From IMG/VR virus record IMGVR_UViG_3300011862_000001, positions 172,910 to 236,909 of that record: DNA of 64,000 nucleotides; one strand, given 5' to 3'. Source of the stretch: a virus (taxonomy: Duplodnaviria; Caudoviricetes). Positions within the stretch are counted from its first letter, which is position 1; each line of letters starts with the position of its first letter. A program made the position numbers and the translations under genes. This document shows positions 3,220-23,148 of the stretch, piece by piece. Under the pieces are notes generated by a model. The model ran no database searches and had not been told where the DNA came from. It was given only the letters and a program-made list of their open reading frames with translations.

Positions 3220-4530
3220 ATGATCAATTACAACAAGCCCACGGCCCAGCTGGTCTGGGATCAGATTAATCGCGATAACCCAGGCCTGGCAAAACCGCTG
3301 AATGCGAATAACGTGGGTGTATTGCAAGGTCCTTTAACCAGCGGGTTACAAGGCAACCGTAATACCAAGCTGATTATCACCGGGCTACCGGGCAGTGGTT
3401 ATAGCGGTAAGCAAAGCATCTACTACGACCGCCTGGCGTTGCAGTCCTACGCCCGTAATTTCGTACCCATAAAAGTCCCTTACCGGGCCACCAAGATGCG
3501 TGAGGTGTTGCCCGCGTTCAACGAGGCAGTAGGGTTGCAATTAACGGTTGACGACATCGCCAACCCTGATGCGATATTCGCACCCGTGACGACCGGCAGC
3601 GGCAACCTGATACTGACGATAAATGCCAATTCCTTATCGTTTACCGGGTCACTGTATGTTAACTGGACACGAATGGCACCGAGTCTTGCAGACATTTACA
3701 CCAAACCGCAAATCGACTTATGGCCAGCGCTTGACGGGCACACCAAAATTTATAATACCGATTTCACACCCTACTCGTCTGTCCTCACCGCACTGGCGTC
3801 AGGCTCGGTGTTAAAGTCCAGCCTCGGGACCAATGTCACGAATTTGATAAACGTGATTAAACGTTGGGCACTTGTACCGGTCACGGTGGGAACGACACCC
3901 TCTGGCGCACCGCTTGATTTGACAGACTGGGTCCTGACAAAAATCACACCCAGCACGGGGGTACCGGATGCCAACCCGCTCTACTCTAACGCCGTGGTAC
4001 TTACACCGCCTATCACCTCAGCGCATCAACGGCCGTTGTACTTGCATTACGGTAGACGCGATGGCAAAACCACTTACGCGCAAGAAGCTGACTTGCTGCG
4101 CTATATTGCCCTTCAGGGCTACGACCCAGAAGGGCCGATGATAGGCGGGCCGGGAAGTGGTAGCGTGTGGCGCTCCGTATTACCGACTACACCACAGCCA
4201 AGTGATTACATGTGGGGTTCACCGTGGGGTCAGTTTGTGGCGGCGGGTTATTGGTCACGTATTTGTCAGCACGCTTTTCCAACCCTTGCCATGTTCCAGG
4301 ACAGCGTACAGGCCAAACGTCGTGTACTGGTGCAGTACAATAATGAAACGGGCGCGAATACCAAAATTATCGGCACAGACCGTAATGGTTACTTAAGCGA
4401 AACCGTCACAATAAACGGATGGCGACGCGTTACAGGATTTATCTATTACGACACCACGACTGGTGGTTACATGACGGTCAACCCCTTTACCATGAGTGCG
4501 GCGACTGCCTGGTATCCACCTTATGCTTAA
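3220..4530 (+). CDS. Tail-associated protein, cassette A gene 1
   Basis: Family N-terminal module plus C-terminal GSP..H..P..YYD domain; paralog of 6689-8008. Confidence 0.75.
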   Translation: MINYNKPTAQLVWDQINRDNPGLAKPLNANNVGVLQGPLTSGLQGNRNTKLIITGLPGSGYSGKQSIYYDRLALQSYARNFVPIKVPYRATKMREVLPAFNEAVGLQLTVDDIANPDAIFAPVTTGSGNLILTINANSLSFTGSLYVNWTRMAPSLADIYTKPQIDLWPALDGHTKIYNTDFTPYSSVLTALASGSVLKSSLGTNVTNLINVIKRWALVPVTVGTTPSGAPLDLTDWVLTKITPSTGVPDANPLYSNAVVLTPPITSAHQRPLYLHYGRRDGKTTYAQEADLLRYIALQGYDPEGPMIGGPGSGSVWRSVLPTTPQPSDYMWGSPWGQFVAAGYWSRICQHAFPTLAMFQDSVQAKRRVLVQYNNETGANTKIIGTDRNGYLSETVTINGWRRVTGFIYYDTTTGGYMTVNPFTMSAATAWYPPYA

Positions 4531-4544
4531 AAGGTAATACATCT

Positions 4545-6665
4545 ATGCCGTTTATTCCAGACTTAAGAGACGCGGTGGTGCGTGCACTGAACCGCATTAA
4601 TAAACCGGCACAATCCGCCGTGCTTGCTGATGTGAAAGTTATCGGGGTGACGCCTTACGCCGGTGAGCGTTTAGATGTCACGATTACGGGCAATCAAAAC
4701 CAACCCACGTACGGGGAGTACACCACCCAGCTTAAACGGCAGAATATCGCCGATTACTTCGCTGCGGTAGGGCCGTTGAAAGTACCGACCAGTGCGACAC
4801 TGCACATTCTGCTGCCTCGTTTGCAACAGTCGGTTGGGTTTACCATGACCACAGACGACTTTGAAGACACACCGATAACCTGGGTGGATGGCAAAGCACA
4901 AGTGACCTTCACTGCCAAACCCGGCAGTGTGTTCTGGTACGGCAGTGCGACAGCAACGCTGTTGGATGGCGACCTCGACATGAGTGTGGCGTATTTAGCC
5001 CAAGCAGTGACGGTCGGCTCGAATATCACTAACCTCGACCAGTTGATAACCTACTATGGCGTCTCCGCTCGCCGGGCGGTTGATCTCGAGCGAGTCGAAG
5101 TCACCGGACCGTTTACGCTGGAAGAGGCCGGGTTAACCAACGCCAGCTATAACTCGGTCATAATTCTCACAGCCAAACCGTTCTCGGGGTTCAAAGGCTC
5201 ACGCACGGTCTTCTTTAACCGCTTTAACCTCGCCACCGCAGAAGGCAAGACCACCCTTACCCCGGATGATTTTACCGGCAATACCCGTGATGCGTTATTG
5301 ACAGAAACACTGGGGATGGGGACGGCGGTACCGGTTGTTGACATTCGTGACGATGTTCTGCCTGACGGCTGGCCTAAAACCACCAAACTGGTGGCGATGC
5401 GACAGTCCGTGAGGGTCTTCGGGGAAGCCAACGTTACCGTAAAACGCTTTATGGATGACGCCAAAGTCATCAATGTGACCATCGGCAGTGGCGTATATGC
5501 TTACAGCGATGCCACATGGGATTTTTACGTCTACAACAAATACCCGTCGGCGGGACGGATCACGATTAACGTTAACGTCGCAGCCGACGCATTGATGTTT
5601 GCATCAACCAACACCAACCACGCGATACCCATTAAACGTATGCCGACCGTCGGTGATGTGATTTGGAATATCGTTAACCGAGGAATTATCTCAGGACGCG
5701 GTGGCACAGGACAGGCAAACGGCGTAACGCCTGTGAAGGCGACCGATGGGATTAATATTGCCGCTGACTTCAAGGGCGTGGTCAATATTGAGAACTACGG
5801 GCTTATCGCCGGTGGCGGGGGTGGAGGTGACGCACAGGGCTATCCTGGGTGTATCATCCCGGGGAACGGTGGTGTACCTTCCGGTGATGCGGGGTCGGGT
5901 GACTATAATGCGCCAGGCCAAGTGGGTGGACAGAAGGTTCCGGCACCGGAAGTGTATTTGACCGGCTCTGATGGCAAGAAGTATTTCAATGGTGCAGGTG
6001 GGGGCTTTGGTCAACCGGGTAAACACGCGCGGTTCGAGTCGTATACCAACGGGGTTCTCAAAAGTGCCTCCGAAGGGACGAGTCCGTATACCATGCCCGG
6101 ACAACCGGGTGCGTCTATCGGTGGGCAACTGGCAGCGGTTAAGTGGATAGCTGAAGGTACCACGATGCCACCGGCTAAAAAACCGTATGCCGATTTCCTG
6201 GACTACCTGTCAACGCTTTCGACTACTGCGCTTATCGATAGCGACAATATGTCGCGTGTCAGTACGCTGCCGGTGGTGGTACAGATGTACGGCGGTAGCA
6301 TTTCCAATAACTGGAAGCAATCTATCACCACCAAAAATGCGTTGTATGGTTCACCGTTCAAAGGGCCGGTTCTGGTGCGTCCAGAGTGTATGTTGTTTGC
6401 GGTTATCTCACACTGCTTCCCACATCCGGACCCGTTGTACGACAACTACTTTACCAGCCGCAAGGTATTGATGTATCTCAGTGATGCAGGTAGTGCAAGT
6501 TCACCCACTCCGATTTATCGTAACTACATCAACAGCCTTGGCTCTGCGGAGTTTCCTGCGAAGCGGGTGGATAAATTCGTTTACTACGATGGCTTTAAAG
6601 GCATGATGATGGAATGCAACCCGTTCTTGGGCACCGATCCGGTACCTTGGGTACGACCAAGCTGA
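4545..6665 (+). CDS. Putative receptor-binding/tail fibre protein with gp38-like glycine-rich adhesin segment, cassette A gene 2
   Basis: Start reassigned to MPFIPDL (AAGGT RBS); NRGIISGRGG...IENYGLIAGGGGGG; paralog of 8018-10225. Confidence 0.7.
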   Translation: MPFIPDLRDAVVRALNRINKPAQSAVLADVKVIGVTPYAGERLDVTITGNQNQPTYGEYTTQLKRQNIADYFAAVGPLKVPTSATLHILLPRLQQSVGFTMTTDDFEDTPITWVDGKAQVTFTAKPGSVFWYGSATATLLDGDLDMSVAYLAQAVTVGSNITNLDQLITYYGVSARRAVDLERVEVTGPFTLEEAGLTNASYNSVIILTAKPFSGFKGSRTVFFNRFNLATAEGKTTLTPDDFTGNTRDALLTETLGMGTAVPVVDIRDDVLPDGWPKTTKLVAMRQSVRVFGEANVTVKRFMDDAKVINVTIGSGVYAYSDATWDFYVYNKYPSAGRITINVNVAADALMFASTNTNHAIPIKRMPTVGDVIWNIVNRGIISGRGGTGQANGVTPVKATDGINIAADFKGVVNIENYGLIAGGGGGGDAQGYPGCIIPGNGGVPSGDAGSGDYNAPGQVGGQKVPAPEVYLTGSDGKKYFNGAGGGFGQPGKHARFESYTNGVLKSASEGTSPYTMPGQPGASIGGQLAAVKWIAEGTTMPPAKKPYADFLDYLSTLSTTALIDSDNMSRVSTLPVVVQMYGGSISNNWKQSITTKNALYGSPFKGPVLVRPECMLFAVISHCFPHPDPLYDNYFTSRKVLMYLSDAGSASSPTPIYRNYINSLGSAEFPAKRVDKFVYYDGFKGMMMECNPFLGTDPVPWVRPS

Positions 6666-6688
6666 CCGCCAGGCGATGAGGATTAAAC

Positions 6689-8008
6689 ATGGCGTTATAT
6701 TCAAAAAGAGCCTTTGGGCTTATTTGCGAACAGGTGAACCGGGATAACCCCCAACTGGCTGTACCGGTAAGTGAACGCAACATCACCTTGCTACAAGGTC
6801 CTTTCAGTACCGCCATGGAAAAAGGGCGTAATACCCGCGTGGTGGTAAACGGAATACCGGAAGGGGGCTACAGTGGCAAACAAACCCTGTACTACGACCG
6901 GTTAAACCTGACGCAACTGTTTAAAGGAATCCCCATTCCCGTCACAGTTCCGTTTAGGGCACAACGTTACCGGGAGATTGTCACGCAGCTCTCAGAAGCC
7001 TGTGGGTTGTCGCTCTCCGTGGAAGACCTGGGTTACCCGGACAGCGTGTTTGATGCAGCGAATTTAGCAACAGGACAACGCACGGTACAGATTCATGCCA
7101 ACAGTGCGGCGTTTGCCGGTTCTATCACGATAAACTTTACCCGTGATAATCCGTTGTTGACAGATTTGTACCAGGTTACCGAGACCAGCGCGTGGGAATC
7201 ACCGGATATCTACACTCGGGTTTACCAACTCGACTGGACGCCGTATATGCAGTCGACGCTGTCGTATCTGCCGCTCGGTACACCGATATACAGTGGTATC
7301 AACAGCTATATAGCCAACTGCGTTAAAGCGTTGCGAGCGTGGACAGGGATACCCTTTACCTTAAGCTCAGCGATGAACGACAGTCCCTACGAGTTGTTCG
7401 GCTATGTCGTCACCCGGGAAAACAACCCCGGGCTCGACCCGGATATGCGCGGTGAGTTTGCTATCTGCTTTAAGTTCACCCCACCGGCTGCGTACGGTAT
7501 GTTGCGCCAACCCTTCTTTTTGCACATGAGTCGCAAGGACAACACCAAGTACCTCACGCAGGAAGAAGACTTACGTCGCTATGTCAACTGGATGGGATTT
7601 TTGCCGAACAGTAAAACGGATTTACATGCTGATGACTGTAACCGCTATGTGTTCATGGAAGCTCTCGCCCCGATTGGCAGTGACGTGATGTACGGCTCAC
7701 CGTACAAGAACCGAATGGCCATGGGTAAGTTGTCGCGTATGATTCAACACGCGTATCCCACCCAAGCAGACTGGGAATCAGCACTGGCTGCCAAACGTCC
7801 GGTTTTATTCATCATGGGTAACCAGATTTATAGCAGCTCCACCATGCGCTCGGGTCTTAACCGCAACGGTTACCAGAGTCTTGGTTTGAATGATGTGCGC
7901 TCGTTCTGGTGTACCGAGTTTATTTACTACGACGTGGCGAAAAAAGGCTACATGACCTGGAACCCCGATAGCGCGACAACGCCTGTGGCGTGGTATCCAC
8001 CGATATAA
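6689..8008 (+). CDS. Tail-associated protein, cassette B gene 1
   Basis: Colinear with 3220-4530 (NRDNP, LQGP, RNT, GYSGKQ..YYDRL, terminal AWYPP). Confidence 0.75.
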   Translation: MALYSKRAFGLICEQVNRDNPQLAVPVSERNITLLQGPFSTAMEKGRNTRVVVNGIPEGGYSGKQTLYYDRLNLTQLFKGIPIPVTVPFRAQRYREIVTQLSEACGLSLSVEDLGYPDSVFDAANLATGQRTVQIHANSAAFAGSITINFTRDNPLLTDLYQVTETSAWESPDIYTRVYQLDWTPYMQSTLSYLPLGTPIYSGINSYIANCVKALRAWTGIPFTLSSAMNDSPYELFGYVVTRENNPGLDPDMRGEFAICFKFTPPAAYGMLRQPFFLHMSRKDNTKYLTQEEDLRRYVNWMGFLPNSKTDLHADDCNRYVFMEALAPIGSDVMYGSPYKNRMAMGKLSRMIQHAYPTQADWESALAAKRPVLFIMGNQIYSSSTMRSGLNRNGYQSLGLNDVRSFWCTEFIYYDVAKKGYMTWNPDSATTPVAWYPPI

Positions 8009-16447: not shown

Positions 16448-16480
16448 AAAAAAAAAATAACAGTGGCCCGAAGGCCACTG
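16448..16480 (-). terminator. Terminator closing the radical SAM operon
   Basis: Minus strand CAGTGGCC-TTCG-GGCCACTG then TTA and a long T run. Confidence 0.9.
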
Positions 16481-16484
16481 AGGA

Positions 16485-17141
16485 TTACAACAGACCTTCG
16501 TCTTTTGCCAACTGCATCACTGCGGTAAAGTCACCTTGTTCGGCGAGCGTACGCAGACGTTGCTTTTTGACGTTGAGCGACATATGCAGGTCGTTATCAC
16601 GTTGGATAATTGCCGCATACAGACCTTTCACATCATCAATCGCAAACGGTTCAACCGGGCTGTTGGTGGCATCAATCCAGTACATCGGGTCAACCCCAGA
16701 CTGGATATAGCCGGTGAGTGCGGTGCGGGATTTCTCGTCAGCCTGGTAACGGTGACCAGCAAACTCGATATCCTGATAACGCAGCTCTGCATAGCGGGTG
16801 TTCATCGCTTGCATCACACGGTTAAACTCACGCCACAGGTGACCTAAGGTTGAGGTCAGCCCTTTGCGGATATCATCCAACGGCAGTTCCAACACGTCTT
16901 TGATAAACGCTTTGGTCTTTTCCATGGTGAACGCCGCTTCGGCATCAGAGAGGTCATGCCCTTTCAGCGCTTTCATCGCCTCTTTATCACTCATGCCGTT
17001 TAGCAGGTGATAATGCAAAAGGGTACAGAACCCTTGGCGCGTGGCGTCTTCAGTTCGCAGAATCCCGCTGTAGTTACCATGGCGGTCAATCGGGGTGCCA
17101 AACTCGAAGTAGCGACGCTTTATTTCGTCATTACTAAGCAT
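16485..17141 (-). CDS. DUF4376-like protein (tail-fibre-associated)
   Basis: C-terminal half: IEFAGHRYQADEKSR..L....WIDATN.. Confidence 0.65.
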   Translation of the reverse strand: MLSNDEIKRRYFEFGTPIDRHGNYSGILRTEDATRQGFCTLLHYHLLNGMSDKEAMKALKGHDLSDAEAAFTMEKTKAFIKDVLELPLDDIRKGLTSTLGHLWREFNRVMQAMNTRYAELRYQDIEFAGHRYQADEKSRTALTGYIQSGVDPMYWIDATNSPVEPFAIDDVKGLYAAIIQRDNDLHMSLNVKKQRLRTLAEQGDFTAVMQLAKDEGLL

Positions 17142-17677
17142 TCAGTTGCTCCTACTAAGCCCAGGTCCATCGCCAAGTCAAAGTCGAACAGCTGGAAGTC
17201 AGTGTAGATATCCTGGCCCCAGACGATGTTCATTTGCTCAGCGTGGTCCTGATTTTGTTCCATATAAGCCCGCGTCAAGTGCATCTCTTCCCCGAAGGCG
17301 TCATACGCTTCGTGGGAACGCACGGCACGTACCCGAAGCTCAGGCCAGCTTAACGCCAGACCAATCAGGTTTTCCGTGTCGAGATTACGCGTAGAGCGGC
17401 GTAAGATTTCGATTTTGTGGCGCGGGAAGTCAGTGACACGCGCTTCAAAGCCCGGGTTACGTTTTTCCACTTCGACCACCGAGTTATGGTGTTCTTCGAC
17501 ACCGTCCAACGTCAGTATCACGTTTAAGCCAAACCGGATACACAGTTTAACGACGTCGTCGGTAAAGGCATCGGGCGCTACCAGCGCATGGGCGTTGTAC
17601 AAGCCGTGCTTGTGCAAAAACGCCGCCACCAGGTGGTGACTACGCTTGGTAAAATTGTGTATCAGAAAGGCTTTCAT
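17120..17677 (-). CDS. Accessory protein of the radical SAM operon
   Basis: GGAG RBS before MKAFLIH; overlaps both neighbours; LTLDGVEEHH resembles an rSAM barrel motif. Confidence 0.65.
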   Translation of the reverse strand: MKAFLIHNFTKRSHHLVAAFLHKHGLYNAHALVAPDAFTDDVVKLCIRFGLNVILTLDGVEEHHNSVVEVEKRNPGFEARVTDFPRHKIEILRRSTRNLDTENLIGLALSWPELRVRAVRSHEAYDAFGEEMHLTRAYMEQNQDHAEQMNIVWGQDIYTDFQLFDFDLAMDLGLVGATECLVMTK

Positions 17678-18980
17678 TAGCAGTGGCTCCAGTTTGGGTC
17701 TTTTTCGCTGCTTCTGCACGTTGACGTACGCAAGACACGCAGTAGCATTGGGTTTTATCGTTTAAGTCGGTATAGCGTACGGTACCAGTTTTCTGGTAGA
17801 AGTATTCCGCGACTAACAGCTTCGCCGTCGTCCATCCACACTGGCGACGTTCAGCGTGGTACTCTTTACGGGCTTCAATCTCACCGTCACCGTTTTCGTA
17901 CGAGGCCGCAGCACAGCTGCCGCACGCGTGTTTCATCGGACACCCTAAGCAGGTCTCTGGGTAGTTGGTGTACTGATTTTGAATCTCATTCAGTAACTTA
18001 CCACCGTCGATGTTAACGATTTCCCGGCCACGCAGTTCAGCGACCGCCTGACGGGTCGTTACGGTAGACATAAAACGGTTGCAGCCGTAAATCTTACGAT
18101 CAAAGCCCAGGCAGGTCATGTGGGATACTGTACCACAGAAAGGACGCACACGCTCCGGGTTCAAACGGGTGGCTTCGTCGTCGAGTAACTTCTGACGCCA
18201 GTCCGGGTCCCAGGTCGCCATAAAGTCCAGACCATCCGGGAAGATGTGAGTCAGACGGTTACGCGGGTCATGCTGCAAGCCTTTGTCAAACCAGTAGTCA
18301 ATCACATCCATCATCTGGTTGGCAATCGACAACGCCGACTGACGTGGCAGCACGTCTTCGTACGTTACGTTACCCGAGATGGTGCCACCGCCGGTGACGT
18401 CAATCAGGTGCTTCATGCTCTCGGCATAACGCGGCAGGGTTTCACTGGTGAAGGTCGCTTTGATACCAAGCTCCAGGATACCCACCGACTTCAGGTAGTT
18501 GTAGCCGCGCATCGCTTTCTCATACGAGCCTTCACGGCTTACCGTAAAGATACGATAGCGGTCGTGCACTTCTGGCAAGCCATCAATCGACACCCCGATA
18601 GACAGCTTGTCGCGCCAGCGTTCGATAATCTGCTGGTTCAGTGGACGGTCAAACAACGTACCGTTAGTGGAGATAGAAAAGATAACGTCGCGATTATCGC
18701 GCTTGGCTAACTCTTCTGCCGCCTCAAAGACACCGAGCAGGATTTTCGGTTGCATCATCGGCTCACCACCGATAATGTCGATAATCACTTCCACGTTCTC
18801 TAAGTGACGGTCACGGTCAAAACACGCATGGATAAAGTCTACCGCGTCATCGACTTTGTTGTTACGCGGGTACTTACGCTCGTAGCAGTATTCACAGTCG
18901 AGGTTGCACGACAGGTTGGTGACCACCTGATAAGTCTTGGTGATTTTGGGTGTTACCACCGGCATTTTATTATCGCGCAT
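17640..18980 (-). CDS. Radical SAM/SPASM-type peptide or protein maturase
   Basis: CNLDCEYC, IIGGEP, STNGT, GVSIDG; auxiliary Cys FCG..C..IYGC..CLGC..ACGSC..C. Confidence 0.9.
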   Translation of the reverse strand: MRDNKMPVVTPKITKTYQVVTNLSCNLDCEYCYERKYPRNNKVDDAVDFIHACFDRDRHLENVEVIIDIIGGEPMMQPKILLGVFEAAEELAKRDNRDVIFSISTNGTLFDRPLNQQIIERWRDKLSIGVSIDGLPEVHDRYRIFTVSREGSYEKAMRGYNYLKSVGILELGIKATFTSETLPRYAESMKHLIDVTGGGTISGNVTYEDVLPRQSALSIANQMMDVIDYWFDKGLQHDPRNRLTHIFPDGLDFMATWDPDWRQKLLDDEATRLNPERVRPFCGTVSHMTCLGFDRKIYGCNRFMSTVTTRQAVAELRGREIVNIDGGKLLNEIQNQYTNYPETCLGCPMKHACGSCAAASYENGDGEIEARKEYHAERRQCGWTTAKLLVAEYFYQKTGTVRYTDLNDKTQCYCVSCVRQRAEAAKKTQTGATANESLSDTQFYQA

Positions 18981-19896: not shown

Positions 19897-20781
19897 TTAA
19901 AAGGTCAGCGCAAACAACGGATCGTCTTTGATGTCCACACCCGTTTCTAAGATGAACGGTGAGTGGTAAGCGTCCAGGATAGTGTTCAAGACTGTCTGAC
20001 GGTCGTTGATACGCTTTAAATCCGCAAGCGTGACGCTACGCGCAAGAATTTGCGAGACAGCCGCTTGTTCTTCTTTACTGAGGGTAACTTTGTTCAGTAA
20101 GAAGCACACCACTTTCGCCAAATCGGCTTCGGTTCCAGGCGCTTCACCAAACTTCCACTGCACCAGGTACTGCATCCACGGTTTGCGGATACGCTTGGTG
20201 ATTTCGTGTTTATCGGTAAGTCCCACAAACTTCTGCTCAGCGTGGTGCCAGACGAATTTGTAGCTGTAGGCCAGCAGGTCGAGCATATGGTGAATGCCGA
20301 GCTCTTCGTAGCCTTCAATCGGGTAATAGGTTTCGAGACCGCTGTAGTCCACGGTGTCTGCCGGTACCTGGGAATACCAGGTCGGGTGTGAGCTTGGGTA
20401 GTCCCAGCTCCATTCACGACGCACCATCGGCTTTAACCCAGATTGGGTAAACGGCGTCAGCAACATTTCCAAGTCGGCGGTTTGGTTTAACATCCCGTCA
20501 CTCAGGAAATACTTACGGTCGACGAACTTGCCAGTGATTTCCAGTTCGCCGGTGTTCAGATGGATATGTTCTACGGTGTGACCAAGCAGCGTAAAGCTGT
20601 TCAGCACTTCATAGTTCTTCGGGTCCACCAGTTCACGACCACGCACCTTTGGCCATTCGCCAGGCAGCTGCGTAATCAAGCGAATTTGGTCTAACAGGTG
20701 ATACTTCACGCTGTCGTAAATGCTGATATGCAGTGGGAAGTTTTGCGTTGTGCGAAACGCCAAGTGCAAATCGTTCTTCAT
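19897..20781 (-). CDS. Accessory protein of the radical SAM operon, unknown function
   Basis: 294 aa ORF, GGGGA RBS, co-oriented and tightly packed. Confidence 0.7.
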   Translation of the reverse strand: MKNDLHLAFRTTQNFPLHISIYDSVKYHLLDQIRLITQLPGEWPKVRGRELVDPKNYEVLNSFTLLGHTVEHIHLNTGELEITGKFVDRKYFLSDGMLNQTADLEMLLTPFTQSGLKPMVRREWSWDYPSSHPTWYSQVPADTVDYSGLETYYPIEGYEELGIHHMLDLLAYSYKFVWHHAEQKFVGLTDKHEITKRIRKPWMQYLVQWKFGEAPGTEADLAKVVCFLLNKVTLSKEEQAAVSQILARSVTLADLKRINDRQTVLNTILDAYHSPFILETGVDIKDDPLFALTF

Positions 20782-20793
20782 GAAAAGTTCCCC

Positions 20794-21000
20794 TTAGAGG
20801 TTGCCTGCGCCATGGCTACAGCCGCCGCTGCATGTCCAGCTACAGGAACCGCCACAGTTATAATGCCATAAGGGCAGTCCGGCGAGGTTGTTGGTGTAGC
20901 TTACCGTTCCGCGTGTTGCAATGTATTCGTTGGCGTCATCGGTCTTGATGTACTTCTCAACCAGGACCATCCGGTTACGAATGTCTTTGAGTGATACCAC
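20794..21000 (-). CDS. Short Cys-repeat protein 3 (4 Cys)
   Basis: GTG start after GGGGG RBS; leader SLKDIRNR..NNLAG; core CGGSCSWTCSGGC. Confidence 0.75.
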   Translation of the reverse strand: MVSLKDIRNRMVLVEKYIKTDDANEYIATRGTVSYTNNLAGLPLWHYNCGGSCSWTCSGGCSHGAGNL

Positions 21001-21048
21001 ATTAACCCCCAAATGTGTAAAAAGGTCGCGTGAGGGAAAGGTCCGCGC

Positions 21049-21444
21049 TTATCGCGACGGGCCGGAACACCCAGAACACCCAGAACACGATGAGCTGCAC
21101 GTCGAGCTACAGCCGGTACACGCACTGCTACAGCCTGCTGAACAACCACCAGAACACCCTCCCGAACAACCGGTACAGGTTCCTGAACAGCCAGACGTAC
21201 AACTCGCAGAACAACTCGCCCCACACGTCCCTGAGGCTGAACCTGAGCACCCACCTGAGCATGAAGAACACGTCCAACTGCACGTTCCCCCACAGTCGTA
21301 GTGCGTCCGGTCAAAACCGGCAAAGCGGTTAGCGTTATTGGTGGCTTTCCCACGGATATAATTCTGCACCCCATTGACATCACGCAATGCGGTGGCGTCA
21401 ATCGCATTAATGCGATCGCGAATATTCTTTAATAAAATTGCCAT
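21049..21444 (-). CDS. Cys-repeat protein 2 (20 Cys)
   Basis: AGAGGA RBS before MAILLKNIRDR; Ser/Gly/Thr-rich CxxxC/CxxC core. Confidence 0.85.
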   Translation of the reverse strand: MAILLKNIRDRINAIDATALRDVNGVQNYIRGKATNNANRFAGFDRTHYDCGGTCSWTCSSCSGGCSGSASGTCGASCSASCTSGCSGTCTGCSGGCSGGCSAGCSSACTGCSSTCSSSCSGCSGCSGPSR

Positions 21445-21455
21445 GCGTGTTTCCT

Positions 21456-21839
21456 CTACGGTCCAGAACAACCGGAACACCCGGTGCAACTGGATGAGCA
21501 GCTACCGGAACACCCGGAACAGCTTTTTGAACACCCGCCGGAGCAACTGCCGGAGCAACCCGAACAGCCGGAGCATCCCGTAGAGCAACCCCCTGTACAA
21601 CTTCCCGTACAGGTCGAGGTACACGTCCCCGAACAACTCGTACAGCTTGCAGAACATCCGTTAGAACACGACCAGCTACACGACCCGTTACAATCCAGTC
21701 CCGGTTGCGACCACCCGGCGAAGCTGTCTTGTGCGTTATTCGCTTGCACAGCCACCTGGTAATCAACCCGAGGGCCAGTAGCGTATGTGTTTTCCACGTT
21801 CTGCAAACGGTCGCGTATGTTTTTAACTGAGATAACCAT
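21456..21839 (-). CDS. Cys-repeat protein 1 (21 Cys)
   Basis: AAGGA RBS; MVISVKNIRDR leader; CxxxC/CxxC core ending CSGCSGP. Confidence 0.85.
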   Translation of the reverse strand: MVISVKNIRDRLQNVENTYATGPRVDYQVAVQANNAQDSFAGWSQPGLDCNGSCSWSCSNGCSASCTSCSGTCTSTCTGSCTGGCSTGCSGCSGCSGSCSGGCSKSCSGCSGSCSSSCTGCSGCSGP

Positions 21840-21852
21840 ACGTTTCCTTTGT

Positions 21853-21892
21853 TAATAAAAAGTGAGGACTCTGCCATATAGACAGGTCCTCA
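21853..21892 (-). terminator. Terminator-like hairpin upstream of the Cys-repeat genes, with TATG at the loop
   Basis: TGAGGAC-CTGTC-TATAT-GGCAG-A-GTCCTCA-CTTTTTATT. Confidence 0.65.
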
Positions 21893-21902
21893 TGTAATTA
21901 GA

Positions 21903-23102
21903 CTAACGAGTACCGGCTTCTGCCTGTACGTCGTCACGCGTGGTCAGGCTGGCGTTGACGTGAACGTTGGCCTGAATCACGCCACCGTACTGTTTGTGCA
22001 GGTATTGAGTGTGTGGGTCAACGGCTGCCGTGTGGTTAGCCAGACTCTGCGACACGCCAGAGATACCGGCGGTGTTGTTAGCGACCTGTTGACGCAGTTG
22101 CGCCAAGTCGGCTGCCACATCGCGGAATTTCTGCTCAGTCGCAGCACCCTGAGTTTCCAGGTTAGTGACCCGTTGCGCCAAGGCAGCAATTACCTGATTC
22201 TGGTCGGTGACCATCTTCTGGAGTTGCAGCACCAGGTCGTTAAGGTTCGCTAACTGAAGCGCCATACGCTGGTAGTTCTGCGCAACCGAGTTCAGCTGGT
22301 CATTCCAAGACGCCAGGGCTGAAACGATAGCATCGATACGTCCGTTAATCGCGGTGTCCGCTGCTTTCAAATTCCCGATGTCGGAGAGCACTGCATCAAT
22401 CGCGGTTTGTACCTGAGCAATCAGTGCTCGGATTTCCGTTTCGGTTAAGCCGTTGGCCTGATGAATGTCCAGACTGTGAACGTTACCCTGGGCGTTGATG
22501 TGGGTTTGAAGCGCAGTCATAAACTGCGTTTTCATGTCGGTAATCAACGTGGCGAGCTGTTCAAGCTGAAGCGATTGCCCGGCATTAATCACATCACGGA
22601 TACCGGCAATTTCGGTAATGACGTATTCAAAGCCAAACAAGTCACCCAAGTCTTTAAACATCGGCGCACCCGGGAAGGTGTCCGGCACATTACGCAGGTT
22701 CTTAAAGTCAATGATTTTGTCTTCAAGATTGGCATCAGCCAAGCCCTGCTTAATCGCGGCAATGTTCGCTGACTGCGGACCCCCAACCACTTGCGCTACC
22801 GCAATCAGGTCGGTTGGTACAGAGGAATCGGTTACCACCACCGCCATACAGATTTCGCGGTTGTTTGCCATCTTCTGATAAACGGGGTGGGTCAGGATAA
22901 GCTCGTAGTGGGTACCGCGCACTAAGTTCGTGTTCGGGGCACTGGCAGGACGCAAGCGGAACGTGTCTGCATAGAACGGCCCTGCGGGAAACGCAAAGGC
23001 ACGGTTAACTTTACCACCGCCCAAAACGATAGGTACCGAGACCGCATTCGAGGTCATCGTCCCTTTCAAATCAAGCGGGTACTGATAAATGATATCTGGC
23101 AT
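21903..23102 (-). CDS. Virion structural/tail fibre protein with long coiled coil
   Basis: N-terminal GPFY..L.RG.HY module shared with the giant fibres; heptad-rich C-half; H...PH.QY motif; start at MPDII (GGGAG RBS). Confidence 0.7.
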   Translation of the reverse strand: MPDIIYQYPLDLKGTMTSNAVSVPIVLGGGKVNRAFAFPAGPFYADTFRLRPASAPNTNLVRGTHYELILTHPVYQKMANNREICMAVVVTDSSVPTDLIAVAQVVGGPQSANIAAIKQGLADANLEDKIIDFKNLRNVPDTFPGAPMFKDLGDLFGFEYVITEIAGIRDVINAGQSLQLEQLATLITDMKTQFMTALQTHINAQGNVHSLDIHQANGLTETEIRALIAQVQTAIDAVLSDIGNLKAADTAINGRIDAIVSALASWNDQLNSVAQNYQRMALQLANLNDLVLQLQKMVTDQNQVIAALAQRVTNLETQGAATEQKFRDVAADLAQLRQQVANNTAGISGVSQSLANHTAAVDPHTQYLHKQYGGVIQANVHVNASLTTRDDVQAEAGTR

Positions 23103-23148
23103 AGCCAAACTCCCTTAGCAGGACTTCCTTGTCCCTTATCGTGAATGG

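Follow-up and report, generated by a model that had tools for sequence, protein, structure and literature searches.

Here we analyse a 64-kb window of viral DNA, the right-hand part of the complete 236,909-bp IMG/VR virus record IMGVR_UViG_3300011862_000001, which has direct terminal repeats and derives from an SPN3US-like jumbo phage. At the end of the tail-fibre gene block of this phage, directly downstream of fibre-type genes encoding proteins of 401, 1690, 1352 and 1017 amino acids (aa), three minus-strand open reading frames (ORFs) lie head to tail, separated by 11 and 48 nt and flanked by the genes for the 401-aa fibre protein and a 294-aa protein (Table 1). The three encoded proteins, denoted A, B and C, have in common a helix at the N-terminus and an NN..(F/L)AG motif, as well as the entry motif CxGxCSWxCS, which leads into a ladder of spaced cysteines. 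On their 3′ side follow, in order, genes for the 294-aa protein, a 301-aa radical S-adenosylmethionine (rSAM) enzyme, a 446-aa rSAM/SPASM enzyme, a 199-aa ORF, a DUF4376 protein and a strong terminator. On balance, we favour a reading in which a Cys-ladder domain that ends tail fibres elsewhere occurs in A, B and C in small, free-standing form, and in which these three proteins are cross-linked by the rSAM enzymes of the adjoining cassette.

Three Cys-ladder proteins in a tail-fibre gene block

The three proteins contain 21 (A), 20 (B) and 4 (C) cysteines. In A, an amphipathic helix at approximately residues 5–20, with hydrophobic residues in a 3-4-3 pattern and a helix at the same residues in the AlphaFold2 (AF2) model, precedes an NNAQDSFAG motif and the entry motif DCNGSCSWSCS (21660–21695); the corresponding entry motifs are DCGGTCSWTCS in B (21265–21297) and NCGGSCSWTCS in C (20827–20859). 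Cysteines are spaced by four and three residues in A and B and by four in C, and B has one eight-residue gap in which Ala70 (21235–21237) sits in the cysteine register (CSGSASGTC). The ladder comprises 21 registers in both A and B, with C carrying little beyond the entry motif, and the cores consist of Cys, Ser, Gly and Thr plus a handful of other residues. An earlier note, made from the sequence alone, had described three paralogs with a common leader, a fixed entry motif and 21, 20 and 4 cysteines, and an alanine that keeps the cysteine period in B; every element it listed is present in the sequence. Its statement that both long cores end in CSGCSGP holds for the window, where B continues to CSGCSGPSR, and for the nearest relatives, but not for SPN3US-type phages, in which the cores end in CSGGCSGR or CSGGCSGPNS.

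Ribosome-binding sites precede the ATG codons of A (AAGGAA) and B (GAGGAA), and a GGGGG run lies five bases ahead of GTG 21000 in C, which is the likely start over the mechanically chosen TTG 21012, given the better match to the N-termini of A and B that it yields. A and B match phrog_6085 over its full length (positions 1–128 of 129; E-values of 3e-44 and 1e-48, respectively), and the 294-aa and 199-aa proteins are members of phrog_8030 and phrog_7988; all three PHROG entries are labelled 'unknown function' and therefore carry no functional knowledge. No Pfam match was obtained for A, B, C, the 294-aa protein or the 199-aa protein. At the DNA level, the region of interest is ~75% identical to the Erwinia phages Caitlin, ChrisDB and phiEaH2, and a 98%-identical relative was found in a pig-gut metagenome. 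Wastewater sequencing runs, marked as possible RNA but probably DNA, contain short pieces only.

Table 1 Features of the Cys-ladder locus; positions are those of the window unless a locus is named.
Feature	Position	Strand	Description
Paralog A	21456..21839	-	127 aa, 21 Cys; ladder end CSGCSGP
Paralog B	21049..21444	-	131 aa from ATG 21444; 20 Cys plus Ala70 in Cys register
Paralog C	20794..21000	-	68 aa from GTG 21000 (alternative TTG 21012); 4 Cys; end CSHGAGNL
294-aa accessory protein	19897..20781	-	phrog_8030, E 4e-151; conserved cassette member
Short radical SAM enzyme, 301 aa	18970..19875	-	CNLSCSFC motif, without full SPASM domain; Pfam Radical_SAM 3.6e-14
Long radical SAM/SPASM enzyme, 446 aa	17640..18980	-	CNLDCEYC motif plus seven invariant C-terminal Cys
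199-aa ORF (probably 185 aa)	17120..17719	-	phrog_7988, E 1e-84 over residues 15–199; overlaps both neighbours
DUF4376 protein, 218 aa	16485..17141	-	Pfam DUF4376 2.9e-10; last gene ahead of terminator
Intrinsic-terminator-like hairpin	16461..16480	-	8-bp stem, 6 GC pairs, T-run; closes gene string
401-aa coiled-coil virion fibre protein	21903..23108	-	Directly upstream of A
Short rSAM copies	L029 1542..2453 and 4061..4984		Duplication in one lineage

Coding status and selection

Across the Cys ladders all six reading frames are open, and annotation pipelines therefore fail there. Nei–Gojobori comparisons with Caitlin and phiEaH2 gave a ratio of nonsynonymous to synonymous substitution rates (dN/dS) of 0.03–0.10 for A in its core, where synonymous sites are saturated, and of ~0.17 for the leader, the N-terminal segment ahead of the ladder; the core is the more strongly constrained of the two. 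In four of the five other frames dN/dS exceeds 1; the exception is the antisense frame with shared wobble positions, where the ratio is low, yet always above that of the sense frame. All six serine codons are in use in the ladder genes, and tandem repeats are limited to two or three copies of 9–18 nt. When B was compared with its counterpart in the 98%-identical contig from pig gut, third codon positions accounted for 13 of the 14 differences listed within the gene, a further 22 differences over the stretch standing outside that list. The Cys-ladder pattern itself is far beyond chance. Non-coding DNA and slippage repeats are ruled out by the dN/dS values and the codon diversity, and, judged by these substitution patterns, A, B and C are real genes. 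The same measures support selection on the ladders at the protein level, which the earlier note had proposed in preference to DNA slippage.

In the GenBank records consulted, the annotation of the Cys-ladder genes is missing or consistently wrong. For SPN3US (L003, JN641803, 6501–7530), the record gives SPN3US_0166 in an incorrect frame and has no entry for A or C; the corrected ORFs span 6501–6893, 6904–7308 and 7324–7530. Frame or strand artefacts overlie the real genes in Caitlin (gp175/gp176) and phiEaH2 (AFQ96632/AFQ96633; L001, L002 6190–7240), and also in CR5 (CR5_157), Kwan (gp183) and Phobos (gp167/gp168; L012, L013, L014 2600–3700).

Conservation of the triad

All 17 of the 17 related jumbo-phage loci on viral contigs, SPN3US included, keep the triad with its gene order and orientation unchanged, and it is also present in the GenBank records of Caitlin, phiEaH2, SPN3US, Machina, SPAsTU, Proteus phage 7, CR5, Kwan and Phobos. 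A has exactly 21 cysteines in all 17 related loci (18 genomes in the total count), and keeps them though leader identity drops to ~55% and spacer length shifts between two and three residues. This fixed number points to a defined structure rather than to an open-ended processive substrate. In the Erskine-, Machina- and Seoulvirus groups, B has 20 cysteines plus the register alanine, and hence 21 registers; its count is 21 in the Derbicusvirus group, where a cysteine takes the place of the alanine, and rises to 23 cysteines in the Wellingtonvirus group. Four cysteines are found in C, except in Derbicus- and Wellington-type phages, where CxGxCSW is all that is left. In lineage L044, which is more distant still, a short rSAM gene comes after two long paralogs and a short one.

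The entry motif of B reads CSF rather than CSW in Seoulvirus-type phages (L003 6904–7308; L031, L032), and CSY occurs in other family members; as far as these alignments reach, the conserved feature of the entry motif is an aromatic residue and not tryptophan as such. In one metagenomic jumbo phage, C (P0034, L008 7001–7633) runs on past CSKGAGGG into a 140-aa C-terminal domain, and in its sister phages (L031, L032) C stops at KGAGGR. No Pfam, PHROG or Atlas identity was found for this domain, the gain of which in one phage suggests that the distal end of C is free.

A cassette of two radical SAM enzymes and an accessory protein

The best NCBIfam matches of the 446-aa rSAM are TIGR04115, the maturase of the CXXX-repeat system (123.6 bits), and PapB (122.9 bits), with sulfatase-maturing and cyclophane-forming rSAM families matching more weakly (1e-14 to 1e-18 versus 1e-35 for TIGR04115 and PapB); its nearest solved structure is CteB (5WGG, E 4e-14). 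Across five divergent phage enzymes, residues C25, C29 and C32 (CX3CX2C) and C282, C300, C344, C347, C353, C356 and C381 show no variation, and the protein combines the CX3CX2C motif with the seven-cysteine SPASM domain (two auxiliary clusters) by which thioether-forming maturases are recognised. It is 32–38% identical to the long rSAMs of other phage cassettes, and the 301-aa rSAM shows weak but consistent similarity to the 266–273-aa rSAMs of such cassettes. In the long and short enzymes the rSAM motif begins at residue 25 and 28, respectively, leaving no space for an N-terminal recognition element (RRE) of the kind associated with peptides of ribosomal origin that undergo post-translational modification (RiPPs). 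In one jumbo-phage lineage (L029; the same in L038) the short rSAM is doubled, with a 303-aa copy between A and B and a 307-aa copy at the usual place.

AF2 predicts the 294-aa accessory protein with a mean local confidence (pLDDT) of 88. No fold match to this model was found by Foldseek against the PDB, in the VIA-align wide search (best Z 4.6, a helical segment only) or in the Atlas (best TM 0.33), and an Atlas feature search gave only weak phage-tail leads. When the protein was compared by hhalign with the 172–263-aa proteins that occupy its position in the cassettes of unrelated phages, the probability was 98.5% (E 2.5e-15), and by this profile alignment the accessory is homologous across phage cassettes. 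No peptidase and no exporter or transporter family was detected among the operon proteins by family scans of the operon, host enzymes lying outside their scope.

The order of substrate, accessory, short rSAM and long rSAM recurs in L018, L019, L021 and L041–L043, and in other phage loci long enough to show them the accessory has 172–263 aa, the short rSAM 265–298 aa and the long rSAM/SPASM enzyme 366–400 aa. A Cys-repeat ORF lies just upstream of the long rSAM in all 21 of the 21 viral-contig loci recovered by a phage-type long rSAM profile. With TIGR04115 as the best match of the enzyme and a Cys-repeat ORF next to it in every viral locus recovered, the adjacent rSAM enzymes very probably have the Cys ladders as their substrates. 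The arrangement fits a conserved four-part phage module of Cys-ladder fibre domain, accessory, short rSAM and long rSAM/SPASM enzyme, and the sequence comparisons establish homology of all four components across unrelated phages.

Homologues fused to tail-fibre proteins

A 71-position profile, covering the pre-core that directly precedes the ladder and the first part of the core, was searched exhaustively against 1.84 billion representatives and retrieved 256 proteins at E ≤ 0.001. Among the newly retrieved hits examined, 46 of 146 contain CxxxCS[WFY]xC. Most of these 46 are 67–560 aa long, the ladder usually reaches to 2–11 residues from the C-terminus, and in most the motif N(A/V)Dxx-L-(D/N/A)-G-x5-YY(R/D) directly precedes the ladder; the window versions of this pre-core motif are NNAQDSFAG...LD, NNANRFAG...HYD and NNLAG...HYN.

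Residues 1–125 of homologue P0126 match tail and tail-fibre PHROGs at 4e-31, P0165 carries T4 collar-fibre and gp34-type repeats, and the N-terminus of P0008, whose gene comes after one for a T7 tail-fibre N-domain in a T7-like podophage, weakly matches tail-fibre PHROGs. P0230 comes from a lambda-like gpJ region, P0126 lies on a prophage-like contig before endolysin and integrase genes, and P0127 is encoded on a 228-kb contig with a T4 gp13-like gene. Instead of the leader, 100–390 residues of tail-fibre protein precede the pre-core in homologues, or, in the bacterial P0012, a twin-arginine translocation (Tat) signal peptide. The family-wide part comprises only the last ~17 pre-core residues and the CxGxCS[WFY] entry motif, and the N-terminal helix is confined to the small stand-alone forms. 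From its universal conservation, the pre-core together with the entry motif is a candidate recognition element.

These results divide the proposal of the earlier note, in which a recognition leader preceded a processively modified core. Its view of the ladders as rSAM substrates stands, and its assignment of the N-terminal ~50 residues as a RiPP-type recognition leader lacks support in the form given. Nor is the leader the conserved element ahead of a freer core, since dN/dS is lower in the core than in the leader and the leader is swapped for fibre domains or a Tat signal. The leader claim is probably wrong or at least unproven.

At the top of the profile search stand P0090–P0096, giant Cys-ladder proteins of 767–1803 residues with 9–15 matching stretches each, of which P0095 and P0096 contain ~160 cysteines each.

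Relation to known systems

The bacterial CXXX-repeat system is a family defined by comparative genomics (targets TIGR04114/TIGR04117, equivalent to Pfam PF27846; rSAM TIGR04115; maturase TIGR04119; associated protein TIGR04116), and we found no biochemical study of this NCBIfam/TIGRFAMs system. It resembles the window system in having a cysteine at every fourth residue of a Ser/Gly/Thr-rich core, the window Cys-repeat core likewise adjoining an rSAM gene in the same operon. The entry motif DCNGSCSW is common to the canonical Tat-signal precursors (LDCNGSCSWGC), and homology of the long rSAM/SPASM enzyme extends along the whole protein (26% identity, E ~1e-22). Unlike the bacterial system, that of the window has neither a Tat signal nor TatA/TatC, is phage-borne within a tail-fibre module, and comprises three targets, paralogs of one another, in which the number of cysteines is fixed. 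By these alignments, it is a real but divergent relative of the bacterial system. A canonical bacterial CXXX system with its own TatA and TatC (L004 6001–9809; Tat-signal precursor, TIGR04115 at 625 bits, TIGR04119 and TIGR04116) adjoins integrase and P22-portal-like genes, which places it on a mobile or prophage-like element.

PapB, the freyrasin enzyme, is level with TIGR04115 as the best match of the long rSAM. It is a single enzyme acting iteratively on repeated Cys-containing motifs. The substrates of the ranthipeptide and SCIFF maturases PapB and CteB are short peptides with a leader and Asp, Glu or Thr acceptors, whereas the window ladders have only S/G/T/A spacers and 21 registers, in what are apparently structural proteins.

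In Methanococcus voltae, the rSAM/SPASM enzyme CrpC puts ranthionine (thioether) bridges on the 29-kDa Cys-repeat protein CrpA, which shares its first 47 residues with its paralog CrpB (Dieter et al. 2026, PMC13692751); phages go unmentioned in that paper. The likeness to the window lies in thioethers borne by a Cys-rich repeat protein rather than a short peptide, in two paralogous substrates with a leader-like N-terminus of ~47 residues, and in substrate engagement that is not solely RRE-dependent. The differences are that CrpC belongs to another family (TIGR04463, 50 bits for the window enzyme) and has an RRE, that CrpA is built of 17-residue repeat units with C-x-x-Q/D acceptors, and that the Crp system is cellular, with suspected metal handling and no virus link. 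A full-text literature search found no description of a phage CXXX-repeat or rSAM tail-fibre system; a cyanophage paper (PMC12801897) was rejected as a precedent, as it mentions only an unrelated rSAM gene.

A possible role in stapling fibre ends

In the model that we favour, the N-terminal helix of A, B and C would probably serve in docking or oligomerisation, and possibly in enzyme contact. It would be followed by a pre-core of fibre type, N-x3-4-(L/F)-(A/G)-G-x5-(H/Y)Y(D/N), by the family-wide entry motif C-x-G-x-C-S-(W/F/Y), and then by the ladder. The proteins would be modified by the cassette that always travels with the ladder domain, that is, the 294-aa accessory, the short rSAM and the long rSAM/SPASM enzyme. 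By analogy with PapB, CteB and the action of CrpC on CrpA, the long rSAM would most likely turn the Cys thiols successively into thioether bridges to nearby residues, with the two rSAMs perhaps dividing the labour between them, and the outcome would be a rod or knot, stapled, rigid and robust in chemical terms, that may be incorporated into the virion. From their gene context and homologues, the products are probably structural fibre parts and not released peptides: A, B and C share with tail-fibre proteins their placement in the gene block, a placement that extends to T7-like, lambda-like and other phages. It is an evenly balanced possibility that, more generally, many tailed phages covalently staple a Cys ladder at the distal fibre end by means of two rSAMs and an accessory, and that in SPN3US-like phages this domain is split into a triad of small subunits docking on the fibre through the shared helix; a structural protein of the virion would then be the object of RiPP-type chemistry. 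The 401-aa fibre protein is a candidate partner of A, B and C.

Several observations weigh against the stapled-fibre model. A, B and C have no Pfam or tail-PHROG match, and with only ~50 pre-core residues they lack the known anchor and shaft domains of fibres; AF2 gave no confident fold for A from a 28-row alignment (pLDDT 41.5), only the N-terminal helix being moderately confident. A leader-only hidden Markov model (HMM) scored ≤11 bits against the pre-core of the fibre-fused homologues, and the best of 1200 shuffled controls scored 10.3; its sole consistent feature is a match position directly ahead of the entry motif, and its clear matches are only to small C-like proteins. A BLAST comparison of the leaders of A, B and C with the four fibre proteins encoded nearby, the 401-aa protein included, gave nothing significant, and the idea of a motif shared between the leaders and the upstream fibre was dropped on this result. 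On the enzymatic side, the 446-aa rSAM scores below the 350-bit cutoff of TIGR04115, though this is its best family match. The target models of the CXXX system stay below cutoff too (A 16.2 bits versus 20, B 15.3 versus 50, C no match), and no operon protein of the window matches TIGR04119 or TIGR04116, a second, short rSAM and the fold-unmatched 294-aa accessory standing instead. Thioether formation is argued from analogy, and SPASM enzymes also carry out other chemistry. Finally, virion proteomics of SPN3US lists gp160 and gp167–171 and none of gp162–166 (PMC5694885 supplement), in a search where A and C were outside the searched annotation, B was misframed and tryptic sites are lacking in the cores. 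The absence of gp162–166 from these tables fits the enzymes and the accessory being non-structural and, as the correct ORFs of A, B and C were outside the annotation, does not bear on these three; gp167, the homologue of the 401-aa fibre protein, was detected in virions (PMC5694885 supplement).

Other explanations have been weighed against stapled fibre ends. In a classical RiPP pathway, the 50-residue leader would recruit the rSAMs, the core would be processively modified, and removal of the leader would yield a free cross-linked peptide that leaves at lysis, for instance a bacteriocin-like or host-directed one. The small leader-plus-core-like layout, the three paralogs with a common N-terminus and the RiPP-type rSAM/SPASM enzymes all agree with such a pathway, as do the small exported peptides among the bacterial relatives and the partly N-terminus-dependent processing of CrpA (PMC13692751). 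We nevertheless consider it unlikely, as the operon has no detected peptidase, exporter or RRE, the leader helix is missing from most family members, which keep the cassette and accessory, the genes are always located in tail-fibre modules, the Cys count is fixed, and in one phage C is fused to a folded C-terminal domain. A related explanation retains the structural role and changes the chemistry: one rSAM could act on the conserved aromatic residue in the entry motif (W/F/Y-x-C), tying it into a cyclophane or another cross-link, or Cys or Ser could be converted to formylglycine, or residues could be epimerised along the ladder. Here the retention of W, F or Y at this position across the family, the survival of only CxGxCSW in C of Derbicus- and Wellington-type phages, the constant presence of two different rSAMs, and the appearance of cyclophane-forming and sulfatase-maturing enzymes among the weaker matches would be accounted for. 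These families score far below TIGR04115 and PapB, however, and no sulfatase motif is present, so that a different chemistry seems improbable to us.

It is also conceivable that the free thiols ligate metal or Fe–S clusters along an oligomeric fibre, like metal-stabilised fibre needles, with the rSAMs modifying little (for example, the entry motif) or acting elsewhere. A core with ~27% Cys and no hydrophobic residues, and a monomer without a predicted fold, would suit such a ladder. Bacterial homologues are exported by a dedicated Tat system, and Tat export typically carries folded or cofactor-bearing cargo; CrpA, too, is a suspected metal binder (PMC13692751). Against this, the domain is strictly tied to two rSAM genes and the accessory in every lineage, the long rSAM groups with thioether-forming maturases, and no metallothionein or metal-binding family was matched in Pfam, which together make a metal ladder very unlikely in our estimation.

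If the stapling of fibre ends proves true, host-recognition organelles would carry an enzymatic cross-linking chemistry for which the known cases until now are small peptide natural products and a single archaeal protein, and the two rSAM genes that SPN3US-like and many other phages carry in their tail modules would be explained. Three missed or mis-framed genes would be added to the annotation of SPN3US, a genetic model phage, and the biochemically unstudied CXXX-repeat rSAM family would gain a tractable system in which adsorption, host range and particle stability can be scored. For phage engineering, it would mean that fibre tips in need of accessory maturases fail when transferred alone.

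Neighbouring features

A hairpin with a T-run lies at 21853–21892, between the 401-aa fibre gene and A; a consensus scan did not call it a terminator. Downstream of the long rSAM, the 199-aa ORF is clade-specific, with a homologue in L008, and no homologue (phrog_7988) was found in the non-jumbo cassettes. A tie of the DUF4376 protein to the cassette system is doubtful; its gene (16485–17141), which closes the gene string, is a homologue of SPN3US gp161.

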